A stretch of DNA of 64,000 nt from an uncultured Bacteroidota bacterium (GTDB lineage: Bacteria; Bacteroidota; Bacteroidia; NS11-12g; UBA9320). The notes below the pieces were generated by a model. It made no database searches. It was given only the letters and a program-made list of their open reading frames with translations, and was not told the DNA's origin. Below are positions 27,225 to 36,171 of this stretch, in pieces (positions within the stretch are counted from its first letter, which is position 1; every line of letters begins with the position of its first letter). The translations under genes were made by a program, and so were the position numbers. Where the stretch lies: the NCBI GenBank assembly GCA_913050005.1, contig CAJXBI010000003.1, forward strand, positions 7,719-71,718, read 5' to 3'.

Positions 27225-28256
27225 TTACTTAATAAGATCAGCATATTTAATTTTAAACTTTATTACTTTTGGTCTGATTATCATATTACAGTAGCCATTA
27301 GTTGATGAGTTATTATTAAAGTAATTTTGATGATAATCTTCTGCTTTACTGTAGTTATATATAGATTCTACTGTGGTGACTATGGGTTCGTCCCATAGAT
27401 TACTAGAATCAATCCTATTAAGTATATTATTAGCAATTTCTTTTTGTTGGGCACTGTGATAATAGATAACTGAACGGTATTGGTCTCCAACATCGTTTCC
27501 TTGTCTGTTTAGTGTGGTAGGATTATGGACATGAAAGAAAATATCAATAAGTGTTTCAGTTGATATAATTTTTGGATCATAAATTAGCTGAGCGACTTCA
27601 ACTGAACCAGTATTGCCCTGACAAACCATTTTATATGTAGGATTTTTTATTTTACCACCTGCATAACCACTTTCAACATGGGAAACACCCTTAAGTTTTT
27701 GAAAAAGAACTTCAACGCACCAGAAGCAACCTGCCCCAAATGTTATGGTATCTAATTCTGAAACTTCTTTTAAAGTAATTATTTTTGGAATGGATTTAGC
27801 CTTTGGAACGAATTTCATAGAAATACTATTGACACAGTGACGGGTATTTTTTGTTGTAAAATTCTCTCCAATAAATACGTGTCCAAGATGTCCTGAACAA
27901 TTACTGCAAACAATTTCAGTTCTTCGACCGTCAGAGTCAAGGATTCGATTTACAGCTCCGGTTATTTCATCATCAAAACTCGGCCAGCCACAATTGCTGT
28001 TGAATTTGGATGATGATTGATAAAGTTTTTGATTGCATTGTCTGCATATGTATGTTCCATCCTCATAGTGTTTATTATATTCACCTGTGTTAGGGTATTC
28101 AGTACCTTTTCGAATAATAACTCTTTTTTCAGCTTCAGTTAGTTTATTGTATTCTGTTGTGTTGGGTTTTTCTTGATTTATCATATTGTCAGATCCAATT
28201 TGGGCATTACAAGAAGTCACTAATAAAAGAAAAATTAAATAATAAGCATACTTCAT
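27225..28256 (-). CDS. msrAB: Secreted bifunctional methionine sulfoxide reductase MsrB-MsrA
   Basis: Signal/lipobox (LLVTSCNAQ). MsrB module (CxxC pairs, GHLGHVF...RHCVNS) followed by MsrA module (GAGCFWCVE). Confidence 0.85.
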   Translation of the reverse strand: MKYAYYLIFLLLVTSCNAQIGSDNMINQEKPNTTEYNKLTEAEKRVIIRKGTEYPNTGEYNKHYEDGTYICRQCNQKLYQSSSKFNSNCGWPSFDDEITGAVNRILDSDGRRTEIVCSNCSGHLGHVFIGENFTTKNTRHCVNSISMKFVPKAKSIPKIITLKEVSELDTITFGAGCFWCVEVLFQKLKGVSHVESGYAGGKIKNPTYKMVCQGNTGSVEVAQLIYDPKIISTETLIDIFFHVHNPTTLNRQGNDVGDQYRSVIYYHSAQQKEIANNILNRIDSSNLWDEPIVTTVESIYNYSKAEDYHQNYFNNNSSTNGYCNMIIRPKVIKFKIKYADLIK

Positions 28257-30541: not shown

Positions 30542-30907
30542 TTACTTACTGCAACATCCCTTTTTAGTTGTGCCACATTTTTTGACGGGTTCTTTTGGTT
30601 GACAACATTTCATGAGTTGGGCTTGACTATCAATATTAGCGTTAACTTTATTAGTTGCGTATCCAATATTGCTAATCATAGAATGGATATCACTCAGGGA
30701 TACTTTTTTCTCGTTATATCTAACTGTAAGAATCTTAGTTTCTTTGTTCCAATCTGCATGAGAAATTCCGGGGATATCTAATGTTTTTTCAATTTTTTCT
30801 TTGCAGATTTCACAATTGGCTTTTACTTCAATACGAGAAGTTGTATTTTCTGCAAAAAGAACGGTCGATACAAGTATTAATGCAAATAGAAGAATAGGAT
30901 GTTTCAT
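30542..30907 (-). CDS. Secreted heavy-metal-associated (HMA) domain protein with Cys-rich C-terminal tail
   Basis: Signal peptide. HMA-like metal-binding motif (NCEICKEKIEKTL; CxxC). C-terminal tail CCQPKEPVKKCGTTKKGCCSK. Confidence 0.6.
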   Translation of the reverse strand: MKHPILLFALILVSTVLFAENTTSRIEVKANCEICKEKIEKTLDIPGISHADWNKETKILTVRYNEKKVSLSDIHSMISNIGYATNKVNANIDSQAQLMKCCQPKEPVKKCGTTKKGCCSK

Positions 30908-30925: not shown

Positions 30926-32035
30926 TTAAAATGGGGATGAATATTTTTCGTTGGTTAATAGGCTTTCATCTGTTAATGTTTTTAGGAAGGAAATTAATGC
31001 CTTTTTGTGCTCGGGGCTTAAATAAACGGAATCTTTTAATGCGTGTAAGTTAGGAGAGTCAGAAAGATCTACAGCACTTGATGCGTTCATATCACTAAGA
31101 TAAAATTGTACTACTTCCTCAAGCGTTTTAAATCTTCCGTCATGCATGTACGGTGCTGTTTTCTCAATATTTCTAAGCGATGTTGTTTTGAATTTATAGT
31201 TGTCATTAGGATTTCCAGTAACATCTCCCAAGCCCTTATCTCCATTGTCTGATAGTCCGTTTGTTAAAAATTCTCGACGCATGAATAAACTATTCCCATG
31301 ACAATGGAAGCAATCTGCACCAAAATTTTGAGGATTATTAGGGTCTACCTCATCTTTGAGTGGTATAGATTCTGAATTAAATATTACTTGACCCACTTTT
31401 TCTTCATCAGTAAATGATTCTAATCCTAGCATCACACGATCAAACTTTGAGTTTGAGGATACAATAGATAGCATAAATTGTTCTAATGCTTTTCCAATTA
31501 TCTTCTCGTCAAATGTGGATTCTAAAAATGCTTTTTGAAGATGTTCTTTGTAAAGCGGTGAACGATTTAATTTCATGATTACATGGTCAATGGTCTCGTT
31601 CATCTCAGTTTCATCAATTATTGGCTGGATAGCCTGATGCCTTAGTATATCTGCACTCCCATCCCAAAAGAATCCATCAATATGCCACATTAAATTGAAA
31701 ATAGCCATTGAATTGCGTTTTCCAACGGTACCTTTAACCCCGACACTAAATTGATTATTATTGTCTGTAAATGCATTTGCTTGATTGTGGCATGAATTAC
31801 AGCTTTGTGAGCTATCTGAACTTAAGATGGGGTCATAAAAAAGCATTCGGCCCAATTGAACTCCTTCTTCAGTTAGAGGATTGTCGCTGGGTATTCTTGG
31901 TGGAGGTAAGAGTGATGTATTGTAACTGAATGAATATGGTGTTATTAGAAAAGGATTTTGTGGAATTTCGTTGATTACATCCTTACATGATAGGAGAGTG
32001 ATAAATAAAAATGATATGATGAACAATTTCTTCAT
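30926..32035 (-). CDS. Di-heme cytochrome c peroxidase family protein (MauG/MbnH-like)
   Basis: Two heme c sites, CNSCHN and CFHCHG. Lipoprotein-type signal (..LLSCK). 369 aa. Confidence 0.85.
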   Translation of the reverse strand: MKKLFIISFLFITLLSCKDVINEIPQNPFLITPYSFSYNTSLLPPPRIPSDNPLTEEGVQLGRMLFYDPILSSDSSQSCNSCHNQANAFTDNNNQFSVGVKGTVGKRNSMAIFNLMWHIDGFFWDGSADILRHQAIQPIIDETEMNETIDHVIMKLNRSPLYKEHLQKAFLESTFDEKIIGKALEQFMLSIVSSNSKFDRVMLGLESFTDEEKVGQVIFNSESIPLKDEVDPNNPQNFGADCFHCHGNSLFMRREFLTNGLSDNGDKGLGDVTGNPNDNYKFKTTSLRNIEKTAPYMHDGRFKTLEEVVQFYLSDMNASSAVDLSDSPNLHALKDSVYLSPEHKKALISFLKTLTDESLLTNEKYSSPF

Positions 32036-32041
32036 TTAGTT

Positions 32042-32788
32042 TTACAGGCTTTCTATAGAAGATACAGAAAATACATCTTTCATATTATTAATTAATTTTA
32101 GTGTGACAGGATCTTCCACATTATGTGTGCTAAGACCATCAATTTCTATGGTATATACTTCAGGGCTCTGAAACACTTCTTTAATGTTATAGTTTAAAAT
32201 AGCATGGATTGCATCATCTTCTTTTGAAAAATTGTAAGGCAATTCAAAATCAACTTTATTCTGTGTGCCGGCTAAATGGAAAATAAAACTTTCATTATTA
32301 TGTATGGTTTTCCCTTCGATAGCTGTGAAAATATAGCCACCCTGCCAGCTCCAATGCAGCGAGTTATTGATAGGTGATAGAGGATGGTCTAAGGTGTATT
32401 GATTTGGATTACCGTGATTTATAATGGAGTCCAAACCGATAGAAAATCCAATTCCTTTGTAGGTTCCCTTAGGGATATTTATTAGTTTGAAATCAGAGTT
32501 AGAATATTTCATGTCAATGTAAAGGTATTGCTTGTCTAGTGCTATTCTAAACTCATTTTCATCAATCAGATAAAAGTTAGATAATAAATAGGCGAATCGA
32601 CTGAATTTGACAGGTTCATCACTAGGTAATGTATATTCTTGATTAAGTTCAAAATCTGAAGTATCAAACAAGTGATTGATAATAATATCCATTGTTGAAA
32701 CCTCATTTTTTATAGGGGGATCAGGCTTGCAACCCATGACTGATATTAAAAACCAAATTCCAATGATTATGAAGATAATTTTTTTCAT
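32042..32788 (-). CDS. Lipoprotein, candidate MbnP-family copper-binding protein
   Basis: Lipobox (VMGCKPD). About 250 aa. Conserved His/Trp cluster (HWSWQGGYIF, FIFHLAG). Placed between a TonB-dependent receptor and a di-heme peroxidase, as in MbnT/MbnP/MbnH loci. The family assignment is inferred from context. Confidence 0.4.
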   Translation of the reverse strand: MKKIIFIIIGIWFLISVMGCKPDPPIKNEVSTMDIIINHLFDTSDFELNQEYTLPSDEPVKFSRFAYLLSNFYLIDENEFRIALDKQYLYIDMKYSNSDFKLINIPKGTYKGIGFSIGLDSIINHGNPNQYTLDHPLSPINNSLHWSWQGGYIFTAIEGKTIHNNESFIFHLAGTQNKVDFELPYNFSKEDDAIHAILNYNIKEVFQSPEVYTIEIDGLSTHNVEDPVTLKLINNMKDVFSVSSIESL

Positions 32789-32797
32789 ATTTCTACA

Positions 32798-33490
32798 TTA
32801 TAAAAGCATAAAAAGTGCCATAGATAACATTAATACATTTTCAATAATTGTAACGTAACTCATAGGAAGGTTAAATACTGTTCCTAAACAAGCACATTGA
32901 ATCTTTGATTTTTGTATAACAGATTTTGACACACCTATCAATCCTACGAACATAACGATAGCAGTTGTTAAATTTGTTATGTCACTGTCATAAAAGAAAA
33001 CATATGCGAGACCTAAACCTAATTCAATAAATGGATAGATATATCCATAAAATCCAAATCTAGAGGATATGATATCATAAGATTGATACGCTTTTGCAAA
33101 AGCAGGGATATCCAGTAACTTGAAGAATGAAAATACGAGAAAGAATCCAGCCATGAAATTCGCCATCCAAGTTTCCAATAAGAAAATACCCGAACTTAGC
33201 TCAATGCTTAAAGTGACAATAGATAAGTAAAAAAGAATAAGGATGAGGGGTTTATATTGACTAAAAAAAAAGCTTTTTTTTGTTGGTGTTAGACTATAAT
33301 CACCAATTTCAGTTAGTAGGCTTTGAATTTCACTTTTGGAGGGTATATCATTTCCTTCAAGTATGGTTGACCCACTATCTTTTTGAATAGTAATTTTATC
33401 TAGTAAAGTATTCGTGTAAAGTTTTTTTTCAATTTTGCTCACACAACTCATGCAAGAAATACCTGAAATTATAATTTCTTTTTTATTCAT
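32798..33490 (-). CDS. HMA-domain protein fused to a 4-TM membrane domain (possibly MauE/DoxX-like)
   Basis: N-terminal GISCMSCVSKIEKKL (HMA fold with CxxC). About 4 hydrophobic helices. Conserved CACLG near the C-terminus. Start overlaps the stop of the upstream TBDR by 4 nt. Confidence 0.55.
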   Translation of the reverse strand: MNKKEIIISGISCMSCVSKIEKKLYTNTLLDKITIQKDSGSTILEGNDIPSKSEIQSLLTEIGDYSLTPTKKSFFFSQYKPLILILFYLSIVTLSIELSSGIFLLETWMANFMAGFFLVFSFFKLLDIPAFAKAYQSYDIISSRFGFYGYIYPFIELGLGLAYVFFYDSDITNLTTAIVMFVGLIGVSKSVIQKSKIQCACLGTVFNLPMSYVTIIENVLMLSMALFMLL

Positions 33491-35754
33491 TTTGATTTAA
33501 TTCTCCATCGAAAACCGCCATAAATTATTCTTCCAAAAATAGGTCCCCAAACTAATCCAGCATCAAAATTTTCTGAAAATGGTTGAATAGCATCTTGAAT
33601 GGGGTTTTGCTGTTTAAAATTCAATATATTTTCTGCACCAATATATAACTCAAATTCTTTTTTAAAAGTTTTACTAATTTGAGCGTTTAATAAAAAAAAG
33701 TTAGGTGAATATTTGTCTTTAATTTGCTTTAAATTATTTGTGAAATAAATGGTGTCTTTACCTCCAGCAATTCGCTGAGGCCCATACCAAGTTAGTGTAG
33801 TATTAAATCTCCAATCAGTTCGAGTATTCTGGGTGATATTAATAAAAGCTCGGTCTTTAGAAATAAATGGTTTTTGTTTAGTTATGAGGGATAAAGTGTT
33901 CGATTCACTCTGATATTTGGTCTTTACATCAAACATTCGGTATGCCAAGCGAATATCAGTCCTACGAGCAGGCTTTAGGTCTAGTTGGGTCTGAAAACTA
34001 TTTGCAATTGTTCCATTTGTTACATTATAAAAATAGGCTTTCCCTGCATTTTCTCTGTCCACAACTACTTCATTTTTAAACGTAGTATTGAAGAAATCAA
34101 CACCAATTATTGCAGGCATGTACGCCATTTTAAATTGATGCTCAAAACTTATCCCTGAATTTAAGGCTAATTCTTGTTCCAAACCATAGGCAAATTGAGA
34201 ATCACGCATTATAAATTCCAAAGTTCTACCTGAAGCAAATAGCATTTGGTTTTGAGCGAGCGGATTACTTGTTCTTCTTCCAAGACCAGTTGATATTCTT
34301 ATCGATGTTTTATCTTTATTAAAACGATATTTCCCATGAAATCTTGGGGTAAAAGAAAGACCATAAATTGTATTGAAGTCTGATCTAATCCCACCTACTA
34401 AGCTGAATGTTTCTTTTGGTTTATATGTGTATTCAAAAAATAGTCCTGAGACTGCCTCTGTCCTTTCAAATTGAAAGCCCTCAAAGGTTTCTTTAGTTTC
34501 ATCAATTAATAATGAAATACCTGTTTGAAATTGATGAAAGCTATTCCCAATAATACTTTCATAGAGAAGGTTAACATACCCTTGATTTGTTTGTGCTAGA
34601 TATTCTTTTTGATTTTCGTTAGAGCCATAATTGCTGGACATTTCTGAGTGATTGAAATTATACTGAGAACCAAAACTACTGTACTCATTTTTTTTCGAGG
34701 GTTTCCCAAGCTTAGCAAAAAAATCGATAACTTCAGTATTAATGCCAATTTTATATGGATTTGAGTTTGAATTTGATTGTCCAGCTTTTTGAAGACTGTT
34801 GTGGTAGCTAGCATTTGCTGTCCCTTCAAAACCATTTTTGTTAAAGAATTGCCAACGATTCATAATCTTAAAATCTTCACTTATTGGCATATCCAAAAAC
34901 CCATCGTTGTTATTATCGAATTCTAATGATCTGTTTCCATATCGAATGAATAGTGAGGATGCAATGTTTTTTTTAATATCCTTTGTATACATAAAATCCG
35001 TTTCAAATCGTCCACCAGAACTAGCAAATTGGTCCAAAATGAATTTTTCAGATCCAAAGGGTTTTTTAAGCTCTATATTAATCTGACCAGCAATGCTCTC
35101 GTGGCCATTTACGACACTACCAGCACCCTTCGTTATTTGAATCCCATCTACCCATGCAGCGGGTATGTGAGATAAACCATAGTATGAATTAAGTGTTCTG
35201 ACGGATGGCATATACTCTCTACCAATTAGTGTGTAAAAACCATCAAGGCCAAGCATTTTAATCTGTTTTGTTCCTGTGACAGCATCACTGAAACTAACGT
35301 CGATAGCAGGGGCATTTTCAAAACTTTCGGATAGGTTGCAACAAGCTGCTTTCTGAAATTCTCGTTCCCCAAGTAGGATAGTTGTTCTTGGGCTTAATTT
35401 AGAAAGCCCATATGAAATGCGTTTTGCTATAACAACTGCCGTTTTTAAATCATTTTGTTCCTCTAATATAATTAGATAATTAGAGTCTATTTTATTGATG
35501 AGGATGGTGTCTGATTTATATGAAGAAAATGATGCAACTAGTCTATCATTATCTTTATTTTTAATTATAAATTGACCTTTGTTATTTGTGAAAACACCAG
35601 AAGAATTCCCACTCCAGTGAACAAAGGCTCCAACTAAAGGCACTTGTCCTCTTGATGAGTTGAAAATTACATTTCCTTTTATTTTTTGAACTTCTTGCTG
35701 AGCATATAAATTTATACCAATCAGCATAAAGAACATTATTATTATGTTTTTCAT
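33487..35754 (-). CDS. TonB-dependent receptor with N-terminal carboxypeptidase-regulatory-like domain
   Basis: Signal peptide. CarbopepD_reg-like region (IKGNVIFNSSRGQVPLVGAFVHW...NKGQFIIKN). Plug region, then a long beta-barrel. 755 aa. Confidence 0.8.
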   Translation of the reverse strand: MKNIIIMFFMLIGINLYAQQEVQKIKGNVIFNSSRGQVPLVGAFVHWSGNSSGVFTNNKGQFIIKNKDNDRLVASFSSYKSDTILINKIDSNYLIILEEQNDLKTAVVIAKRISYGLSKLSPRTTILLGEREFQKAACCNLSESFENAPAIDVSFSDAVTGTKQIKMLGLDGFYTLIGREYMPSVRTLNSYYGLSHIPAAWVDGIQITKGAGSVVNGHESIAGQINIELKKPFGSEKFILDQFASSGGRFETDFMYTKDIKKNIASSLFIRYGNRSLEFDNNNDGFLDMPISEDFKIMNRWQFFNKNGFEGTANASYHNSLQKAGQSNSNSNPYKIGINTEVIDFFAKLGKPSKKNEYSSFGSQYNFNHSEMSSNYGSNENQKEYLAQTNQGYVNLLYESIIGNSFHQFQTGISLLIDETKETFEGFQFERTEAVSGLFFEYTYKPKETFSLVGGIRSDFNTIYGLSFTPRFHGKYRFNKDKTSIRISTGLGRRTSNPLAQNQMLFASGRTLEFIMRDSQFAYGLEQELALNSGISFEHQFKMAYMPAIIGVDFFNTTFKNEVVVDRENAGKAYFYNVTNGTIANSFQTQLDLKPARRTDIRLAYRMFDVKTKYQSESNTLSLITKQKPFISKDRAFINITQNTRTDWRFNTTLTWYGPQRIAGGKDTIYFTNNLKQIKDKYSPNFFLLNAQISKTFKKEFELYIGAENILNFKQQNPIQDAIQPFSENFDAGLVWGPIFGRIIYGGFRWRIKSK

Positions 35755-35805: not shown

Positions 35806-36171
35806 CTAACATAAAAAAACCTGAAAAATACTGGGGTGACTATTAATGTCAATATAATTTGAACAAACTATTCTATACCTATTGCACAGATTAGTTAAAA
35901 CATGTAGTTTGACTTTTAATATAATGGGTAAACTGATTGGGATGTTTAATGTTTTTTGGGGGGTGAAATCAATTTGATTTGGGGGCAAAACAATTAAAAC
36001 AAAATCATTACAATTATCTTGATCGATAGTTTCATGACAGGATGTGGGATTATAATCTTGTGAACAACACGTTTCAAAATCGGTAACACAACAAGCATCA
36101 ATGACCATACTGAATCCAATGCTAGGGAATAACAGTATTAGAGAAAATAATATAGCAGTAACTTGCTTCAA
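35806..36171 (-). CDS. Small secreted Cys-rich hypothetical protein
   Basis: Signal peptide followed by DACCVTDFETCCSQDYNPTSCHETIDQDNC. The C-terminal half is low-complexity, so coding status is uncertain. Confidence 0.3.
   Translation of the reverse strand: MKQVTAILFSLILLFPSIGFSMVIDACCVTDFETCCSQDYNPTSCHETIDQDNCNDFVLIVLPPNQIDFTPQKTLNIPISLPIILKVKLHVLTNLCNRYRIVCSNYIDINSHPSIFQVFLC

Follow-up and report, generated by a model that had tools for sequence, protein, structure and literature searches.

Which protein might carry copper over the inner membrane in a TonB-dependent copper uptake operon is the question raised by a gene cluster of an uncultured Bacteroidota bacterium, analyzed here in a stretch of 64,000 nucleotides of contig CAJXBI010000003.1 (the window, to which all positions refer). 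Between the genes for an outer-membrane receptor and an MbnP/MbnH pair lies a single open reading frame (ORF; 32798..33490, minus strand, ATG start) encoding a protein of 230 amino acids. We confirm that this protein is a fusion of an HMA metal-binding domain to a membrane domain of the MauE family, hereafter HMA-MauE, and we predict it to be the best candidate for the inner-membrane step of the operon. How it would work is a more tentative matter. At somewhat less than even confidence we favor a Mer-like relay, in which Cu(I) would move through the inner membrane on thiols and methionines and be delivered to the tethered HMA domain. A copper relay is favored because of the domain architecture, the signs of a cytoplasmic location, the copper gene context and the clade-specific residues, and because HMA-MauE is the sole integral inner-membrane protein of the operon.

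The HMA domain occupies residues 1-68 (33287..33490, minus strand). The Pfam profile HMA (PF00403) was found to match residues 6-60 with an E-value of 1.7e-4 and 22.3 bits, slightly under the gathering score of 24.8, while 110 of 138 aligned homologues matched it at E<=1e-3, the best at 7.8e-20. An AlphaFold2 (AF2) model built from the alignment of the 138 homologues had a mean pLDDT of 87.4 and was used in place of a single-sequence model, which reached a pLDDT of 45 and was discarded. In the model residues 2-68 form a ferredoxin-like beta-alpha-beta-beta-alpha-beta fold, with strands at residues 2-9, 32-36, 41-46, and 66-68 and helices at 14-27 and 52-62. Foldseek matched this unit to CopZ, Atx1, and the metal-binding domains of ATPases including ATP7B, with target TM-scores up to 0.83 (for CopZ and Atx1 0.81-0.83, at an rmsd of 1.7-2.1 A). 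The HMA assignment made in a preliminary description of the gene is therefore secured by the homologue matches, the predicted fold and the structural matches together, and the outcome that would have undone it, an N-terminus not folding as HMA, was not observed. The metal-binding motif lies in GISCMSCVSKIEKKL (residues 10-24) and reads G-I-S-C13-M-S-C16 at the position of the G-M-x-C-x-x-C motif; C13-M-S-C16 is encoded at 33443..33454 (minus strand), and both Cys residues are conserved in at least 90% of the sequences. The domain is predicted to bind Cu(I) or another soft metal.

The membrane domain spans residues 75-229 (32804..33268, minus strand). Where about four helices had been proposed, the model and hydropathy show five transmembrane (TM) helices (75-99, 105-126, 147-165, 170-192, and 212-229), the first of which, TMa, is an addition preceding the four-helix core of MauE. 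The Pfam profile MauE (PF07291) matched residues 107-229 with an E-value of 8.9e-12 and 45.9 bits against a gathering score of 27. The match covers profile positions 6-126 of 128 and was also found in 138/138 homologues, which bears out the earlier suggestion of a MauE/DoxX-like membrane part. The profile scan advised in the preliminary description thus placed MauE above its cut-off and HMA below it in the query, and did not reveal the MerT-like membrane homology that had been considered, since the NCBIfam matches to MerTP and MerP cover just HMA residues. The Cys-x-Cys noted near the C-terminus is part of a CACLG motif at residues 199-203 (32882..32896, minus strand; the reverse complement was verified by hand). 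It corresponds to the CXC active site of MauE, and C199 and C201 are invariant in the 138 sequences.

Two MauE homologues were reported to replace DsbB in Escherichia coli, with a requirement for the CXC between helices 3 and 4, and a conserved Lys in helix 1 and Glu in helix 2 were placed near docked ubiquinone (bioRxiv 10.64898/2026.03.05.709764). To see what the fusion shares with such proteins we compared three groups: the 138 HMA-type sequences; four plasmid homologues with a glutaredoxin (Grx) domain in place of HMA, together with a stand-alone protein from Bernardetia; and 60 MauE sequences from methylamine (mau) clusters. Common to all three groups are F112, K124, F131, P153, E156, C199, C201, and N218. 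K124 (core helix 1) and E156 (core helix 2) were found in 100% of the HMA-type, Grx-type, and mau-cluster sequences, and C199-A-C201 aligns with the CGC of Paracoccus denitrificans MauE. The query thus retains the DsbB-like catalytic residues described in the preprint, K124, E156, C199, and C201. A proposal that K124, E156, and the CxC are copper ligands specific to HMA-MauE was dropped, these being family-wide MauE residues. G203 is likewise family-wide according to the sequence logo of the preprint (bioRxiv 10.64898/2026.03.05.709764), which is a caveat for its use as a clade-specific residue.

Other positions separate the copper-linked groups from the mau cluster. Position 139 is Asp in 100% of the copper-linked sequences and Arg in 100% of the mau-cluster sequences, and position 217 is Glu in the former and Arg in the latter, again both at 100%. 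M221 (100% in the copper-linked groups) corresponds to Leu in 85% of the mau-cluster sequences, M224 (98-100%) to Leu in 50%, and M228 (80%) to Val in 63%. The HMA type has additional Met residues at 109 (92%), 113 (100%), and 210 (91%). On a helical wheel E217, M221, M224, and M228 fall within 60 degrees on a single face of the last helix (residues 217-229; 32804..32842, minus strand), at relative depths of 0.29, 0.53, 0.71, and 0.94 from the CxC side, and M113, E156, and M221 are all near mid-membrane. Beside the CxC, the three basic residues of the mau cluster are replaced by one basic and two acidic residues in the copper type, which fits a change from an anion- or quinone-friendly pocket to a putatively cation-friendly one. 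Met ladders are typical of Cu(I) paths such as those of Ctr1 and CusA.

Four TM helices separate the CxxC of the HMA domain from the CxC, and both motifs are therefore on one side of the membrane, whatever the absolute orientation of the protein. This side carries a mean of 9.4 Lys and Arg residues (K/R) against 0.7 on the opposite side, with the same direction in 138/138 sequences. No signal peptide was found in any of the 138 homologues, including four with N-terminal extensions, whereas the operon's own periplasmic HMA protein has one. Unfused HMA partners encoded next to a MauE gene lack signal peptides as well (loci L095 and L096), and the glutaredoxin version of the N-terminal domain carries 16 K/R. 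In two homologues, P0139 (367 amino acids) and P0261 (387 amino acids), a GNAT domain (Acetyltransf_CG) is inserted between the HMA and membrane parts, and HMA is replaced by YHS in two members and by TusA in one. The K/R bias, the lack of signal peptides, these GNAT, YHS, TusA, and Grx variants and the signal-less unfused partners favor the cytoplasm as the likely location of the HMA/CxC side. If both motifs are cytoplasmic, the protein would link periplasmic copper handling to the cytoplasm. The earlier proposal of a relay is then retained as to its class, a metal or thiol-redox relay, but not as a link from the receptor to the periplasmic pair.

The methylamine cluster of P. denitrificans plasmid 1 (mauE-mauD-mauA; L097:18908-20681) presents a related case. 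By the positive-inside rule the CGC loop and the K/R-rich C-terminal tail of its MauE are cytoplasmic. In MauD, K/R are absent ahead of the anchor helix and R28 and R35 follow it, so that the thioredoxin domain is predicted to be cytoplasmic, and the leader of MauA contains a twin-arginine motif (TSRRSVIGK). Taken together, these features suggest that MauA might acquire its six disulfides on the cytoplasmic side, prior to Tat export, contrary to the periplasmic topology given in the preprint.

HMA-MauE is encoded within an operon transcribed from the minus strand in the order small Cys-rich protein, TonB-dependent receptor, HMA-MauE, MbnP, MbnH, and secreted HMA protein. Intergenic distances range from -4 to 51 nucleotides, and the receptor stop and the HMA-MauE start overlap by 4 nucleotides. 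Unlike in the P. denitrificans cluster, no mauD, mauA, or mauB neighbors were found in the operon. A promoter and terminator scan of the AT-rich operon region performed no better than on shuffled sequence.

The receptor (755 amino acids; 33487..35754) has a CarboxypepD_reg-like N-terminal domain (CarbopepD_reg_2, E 1e-8) followed by a plug (Plug, E 4e-5), with weak NCBIfam matches to TonB receptors. The MbnP-family protein (248 amino acids; 32042..32788) matches PF20243 with an E-value of 1.2e-31 and TIGR04052 in part, and carries a lipobox (VMGC) and a WSW motif (HWSWQ). The MbnH-like di-haem cytochrome c peroxidase (369 amino acids; 30926..32035) matches CCP_MauG at E 8.5e-50 and TIGR04039 at E 8e-65 with 219 bits, under the equivalog cut-off of 362.85. 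The neighbors thus comprise an adjacent pair of a WxW-containing MbnP and an MbnH, as expected of MbnPH. MbnH installs a kynurenine in MbnP that is required for copper binding (PMC11951088).

The operon ends with the secreted HMA protein (121 amino acids; 30542..30907), which begins with a signal-like peptide, bears a C-E-I-C motif and ends in a tail rich in paired Cys (KCCQ...KCG...GCCSK), and matches Pfam HMA at E 4e-9 and the NCBIfam models for MerP and CopZ. It is also the last operon gene in L001-L007, L012, and L014. Weak matches of this protein to models related to the type IX secretion system (T9SS), the PorZ N-terminal domain and the PorU sortase N-terminus, were observed as well. The first gene (35806..36171) encodes a protein of 121 amino acids with a hydrophobic N-terminus and many Cys residues, two CC pairs among them, for which no Pfam or NCBIfam match was found. 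A gene for such a protein is kept at the equivalent position in L001, L003, and L015, while positional analogues are an HYC_CC_PP protein (NF047658) in L007 and L085 and a DUF8199 protein (PF26622) in L012. Homology to HYC_CC_PP was unsupported (E 0.16 against the protein of L007), leaving a positional analogue only. Copper operons of Proteobacteria begin with a gene for DUF2946/CruR, a Cys-containing protein through which copper control is exerted post-transcriptionally (PMC9426467), and by analogy the 121-amino acid protein may be a leader or regulator. Approximately 2.3 kb from the 3' end of the operon, an ORF at 27225-28256 (minus strand) encodes a 343-amino acid MsrB-MsrA-like fusion with a lipoprotein-type signal (LLLVTSC). 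From its CxxC...GCFWC motifs, it would be a putative exported methionine sulfoxide reductase.

We proceeded to compare homologues of the fusion and their loci. A word-indexed search gave 7738 matches, generic MauE proteins among them, and an exhaustive search of representatives at 50% identity gave 1057 at E<=1e-10 and 247 at E<=1e-30. The representatives were mostly of 220-260 amino acids and matched over their full length; their public names are generic, such as "heavy-metal-associated domain-containing protein," "cation transporter," and "copper chaperone CopZ." An HMM search of all analyzed loci found no additional MauE paralogues. Within the clade of the query (at least 48% identity) receptor, HMA-MauE, MbnP, MbnH, and secreted HMA protein were all present in 8/8 loci, these being the loci with enough flanking sequence and some of them mutual near-duplicates. 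The gene order was also kept in 8/8 loci and, with the Pfam matches of the neighbors, it supports the position between receptor and MbnP/MbnH pair given in the preliminary description. Among 40 more distant loci (38-47% identity), only two had MbnP nearby, so that the co-occurrence with MbnP, whose analysis had been advised in the preliminary description, holds for the clade of the query and is rare among the more distant loci. Two MbnP/MbnH pairs or extra MbnH copies were seen beside HMA-MauE in L007 (266-3298 and 6716-8568), L094, and L043.

The more distant loci were found to be rich in other copper genes. At least one copper-linked neighbor was present in 33/40, a CueO-like multicopper oxidase in 19/40, CusA in 8/40, and small Cys proteins of the HYC_CC_PP type in 13/40, and further HMA proteins were also present. 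An AraC regulator with an HMA-like part was found in 24 of these 40 loci, immediately upstream in 20. Of the 71 loci with an upstream gene, 31 encode this 186-amino acid protein, with an HMA-like N-terminus (MVCNRC) and an AraC helix-turn-helix (HTH), directly upstream on the same strand. It probably represents a copper-sensing AraC family of Bacteroidota. Examples are found in L019, L021, L037, L057, and L090 (L090:4679-5239), where Pfam detects just the HTH. Since just two of the more distant loci carry MbnP and most are copper-resistance islands, the fusion is not specific to MbnPH. HMA-MauE is a general component of copper loci in Bacteroidota, and the association with MbnPH is a feature of one clade.

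Some loci had neighbors of another kind. A class I SAM-dependent methyltransferase (UbiE/COQ5-like, cluster c15) is encoded directly downstream in L098:6486-7097 (Sinorhizobium meliloti, Grx type) and L057:5048-5698 and was also found in four other loci; those from Bacteroidota are of the HMA type, and a link to copper is not obvious. In a Methylophilaceae metagenome-assembled genome (L009:7001-7690, P0120) a 45%-identical homologue occurs in a betaproteobacterial methylotroph; no copper genes lie within 7 kb, and the precomputed Pfam annotation of P0120 shows MauE only.

The same core is found on plasmids of other phyla. The membrane core, searched against plasmids by tblastn, gave 296 records. 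In a Bernardetia (Cytophagia) group, the gene for a stand-alone five-helix MauE with 55% identity directly follows one for a double-HMA protein that lacks a signal peptide, and their island also encodes a multicopper oxidase, DUF305 and a four-helix-bundle copper protein. The other plasmid homologues (Alpha- and Gammaproteobacteria, cyanobacteria, and Legionella; 29-37% identity) are annotated as "glutaredoxin" and consist of an N-terminal monothiol Grx domain (CPYG, TTPQ..GG.DD), the extra helix and the MauE core. The S. meliloti protein has been described as an "atypical SmGrx3" without known function (PMC6315971). A copper island of Paracoccus liaowanqingii contains, in this order, cueR, DUF411 (CopG-like), the Grx-MauE gene, and a gene for a 71-amino acid signal-less HMA protein. 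In Gloeocapsa the Grx-MauE gene occurs with genes for an HMA protein, a P-type ATPase, a cupredoxin and an RND pump, and the S. meliloti and Legionella genes each have a gene for a MerR regulator as their partner. The plasmid homologues are found in islands with cueR, CopG (DUF411), copper oxidase, DUF305, or Csp-like genes, and a CxxC-bearing partner, HMA or Grx, is always fused to the MauE core or encoded beside it.

In the proposed mechanism copper would enter the periplasm through the TonB-dependent receptor and be held there by the secreted HMA protein and/or by MbnP, whose copper site depends on the MbnH-installed kynurenine. Cu(I) would then cross the inner membrane on a Met/Glu ladder formed in turn by M109/M228, M113/M224, E156/M221, and E217, reach C199-x-C201 at the cytoplasmic face and pass by thiolate ligand exchange to the CxxC of the HMA domain, from which onward transfer to other HMA proteins may follow. 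Transport would be driven by ligand exchange into a cytoplasmic thiol sink, without ATP. In copper islands the module may take the role of MerT or CopCD, that is, uptake for sensing, storage or re-export, and the frequent HMA-like AraC neighbor would be a natural acceptor. The cytoplasmic side, copper as the cargo, the import direction and the loss or subordination of quinone-linked redox chemistry are what we infer in this scheme.

The catalytic residues retained from MauE would also suit a quinone-linked thiol-disulfide oxidoreductase at the cytoplasmic face. The CxC would then oxidize or exchange disulfides with the CxxC of the tethered HMA domain, or in other clades with the fused glutaredoxin domain or an adjacent CopZ-like protein, and the quinone pool would redox-gate the binding and release of Cu(I) by the chaperone without any carriage through the membrane domain. 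We consider this, the main rival to the relay, conceivable but unlikely. The invariant K124, E156, C199, and C201 align with the mau-cluster Lys, Glu, and CXC that the preprint ties to quinone docking and catalysis, the extra helix places a CxxC domain beside the active-site loop as in VKOR-thioredoxin-like fusions, and 8.2% of MauE proteins carry fused thioredoxin-superfamily domains (bioRxiv 10.64898/2026.03.05.709764). The constant fused or adjacent CxxC partner fits this function too. It leaves unexplained, however, the change of two invariant Arg residues near the active site to Asp and Glu and the Met ladder of the copper-linked clade. What an uptake operon or a resistance island would gain from oxidizing a copper chaperone in the cytoplasm is not obvious, and the YHS variants indicate metal binding rather than dithiol exchange. 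A sensor or signal relay, in which trace copper of the periplasm would be let in or detected by the membrane domain and then given as Cu(I), by the HMA domain, to the HMA-like part of the AraC-type regulator to switch on copper genes, is very improbable. Cu(I) is usually trafficked from one HMA domain to another, and the regulator lies immediately upstream in the 31 loci mentioned above, but it is absent from the operon in the window and from all eight loci of the clade. A sensor of this kind would moreover be a special case of the copper relay rather than a true alternative to it.

The canonical MauE orientation, with the CxC loop and the HMA domain in the periplasm and the extra helix as a reverse signal-anchor, appears improbable, though less so than the sensor. 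The protein would in that case be a DsbB-like oxidase or a DsbD/CcdA-like conduit of reductant for the Cys-rich exported proteins of the operon, its clients being the Cys-tailed secreted HMA protein and the small Cys-rich product of the first gene, and copper from the receptor or MbnP would be picked up by the HMA domain on its membrane tether. The operon does encode two Cys-rich exported proteins in need of control of their thiol state, and in L096 the Grx-MauE gene directly follows the gene for DUF411/CopG, which we take to be a periplasmic CxCC copper protein. The TOPCONS prediction, which puts the CXC of MauE in the periplasm, and the replacement of DsbB by two MauE homologues point in the same direction (bioRxiv 10.64898/2026.03.05.709764). 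Yet this orientation would place 9.4 K/R outside and 0.7 inside in all 138 sequences, and export of an N-terminal domain of 70-95 residues without a signal is unlikely, all the more with the 16 K/R of the Grx version. A GNAT domain or a GSH-type glutaredoxin makes little sense in the periplasm, and the operon's own periplasmic HMA protein uses a signal peptide.

Several points weigh against a cytoplasmic copper relay itself. As a control, P. denitrificans MauE and 116 relatives were found to have 9.4 K/R on the CxC side and 0.9 on the other. Because mau-cluster MauE has the same bias, the K/R bias alone cannot prove a special topology of the clade; it may be a quirk of the family rather than a topology signal, and the idea that the clade is inverted relative to canonical MauE, drawn from this bias, is weakened. 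A cytoplasmic CxC also conflicts with the periplasmic CXC assigned in the preprint to the two other, DsbB-replacing MauE homologues. Redox chemistry may persist in the copper-type core, and the Met and Glu residues are distinctive in comparison with the mau-cluster clade alone, not with MauE at large. The CxC loop, between helices four and five, is the region of lowest confidence in the model (pLDDT 63-68), and Foldseek matched no solved structure to the membrane domain. Finally, a copper importer within copper-resistance islands needs a special explanation, such as the logic of MerT or CopCD, and the function of the copper-type clade is predicted from sequence alone.

Among known systems, MauE shares with the protein the four-helix core, the CXC between core helices 3 and 4, the Lys and Glu and a Pfam match above cut-off. 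HMA-MauE differs by the extra N-terminal TM helix and fused HMA domain, by CAC-L-G in place of CGC-F-x, and by lacking a C-terminal fifth helix of the P. denitrificans type. From mau-cluster MauE it differs further by Asp139 and Glu217 in place of invariant Arg, by the Met ladder on the last helix and by a copper gene context without mauD or mauA. SmGrx3 and its plasmid relatives have in common with it a signal-less Cys-bearing N-terminal domain, the extra TM helix, a MauE core that is 29-37% identical and the copper-type residues D139, E217, M221, M224, and CAC, and they often occur in copper or MerR-regulated islands. There, a monothiol glutaredoxin replaces HMA, M109, M113, and M210 are not conserved, and no link to MbnP/MbnH or TonB-dependent receptors was seen. 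HMA-MauE would also share the geometry of MauE or DsbB with a partner, a CxxC on the partner, a mobile CxC loop and a pocket in a helix bundle, with Cu(I) rather than two electrons as the proposed cargo.

In its logic the proposed scheme matches the mercury uptake relay from MerP over MerT to the N-terminal HMA domain of MerA, in which a small membrane protein with paired Cys likewise connects an HMA protein of the periplasm to an HMA acceptor in the cytoplasm by ATP-free thiol ligand exchange; the operon in the window would hold all three kinds of part. MerT-HMA fusions (NF033556 and NF045683) can be likened to HMA-MauE in the same way. The membrane domains, however, share no homology, that of MerT having three helices with a CC pair in the first, and the presumed metal here is copper. 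P1B-type copper ATPases (CopA and ATP7B) share the order of an N-terminal HMA or YHS domain followed by a membrane domain with Cys-x-Cys (CPC in the ATPases) and Met, but the query lacks the ATPase domains, has an unrelated membrane fold (rmsd >15 A to full-length ATP7B) and would probably transport in the opposite direction. Operons of Proteobacteria with DUF2946 (CruR), a TonB receptor and PepSY_TM/MbnPH resemble the present one in having a small Cys-containing first gene, a TonB receptor, MbnPH-like pairs and an inner-membrane protein (PMC9426467). DUF2946 and PepSY_TM there correspond to a positional analogue of HYC_CC_PP and to HMA-MauE here.

The fusion itself is not new, since it is present in databases under generic names and its Grx version has been noted in the literature. 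Literature searches for MauE with copper or multicopper oxidase returned nothing relevant. We believe that the copper-specialized, multi-phylum MauE clade with its Arg-to-acid and Leu-to-Met signature has not been described before, nor the argument that places the partner domain and the CxC on the same side, nor the fixed place of the gene in a receptor-MbnPH operon. A broader but doubtful proposal is that the copper-type MauE clade, whether HMA-fused, Grx-fused, or stand-alone, may comprise unrecognized ATP-independent inner-membrane Cu(I) transporters that arose from a thiol:quinone oxidoreductase.

Copper crossing of the bacterial inner membrane is, to our knowledge, understood for few systems (CcoA and CopD/YcnJ), and we know of no inner-membrane partner established for TonB-dependent uptake of the MbnT/MbnPH type. 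If the proposal is true, HMA-MauE supplies this missing step of TonB-dependent, MbnP/MbnH-assisted copper uptake, and a small, widespread, and easily mutated candidate makes the inner-membrane copper step testable. With the core also present in plasmid copper islands of Proteobacteria and cyanobacteria, including SmGrx3 of S. meliloti, it extends beyond Bacteroidota. HMA-MauE is at the same time a natural test case for the disulfide pathway proposed for MauE, its fused domains serving as topology markers that disagree with the published prediction. If they are right, at least some MauE clades, including the MauE/MauD pair of the methylamine cluster, would act at the cytoplasmic face of the membrane. 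The Arg-to-acid and Leu-to-Met changes suggest a route from a redox module to metal handling, along which a redox pocket would have been converted into a Met/Glu/Cys path for metal.

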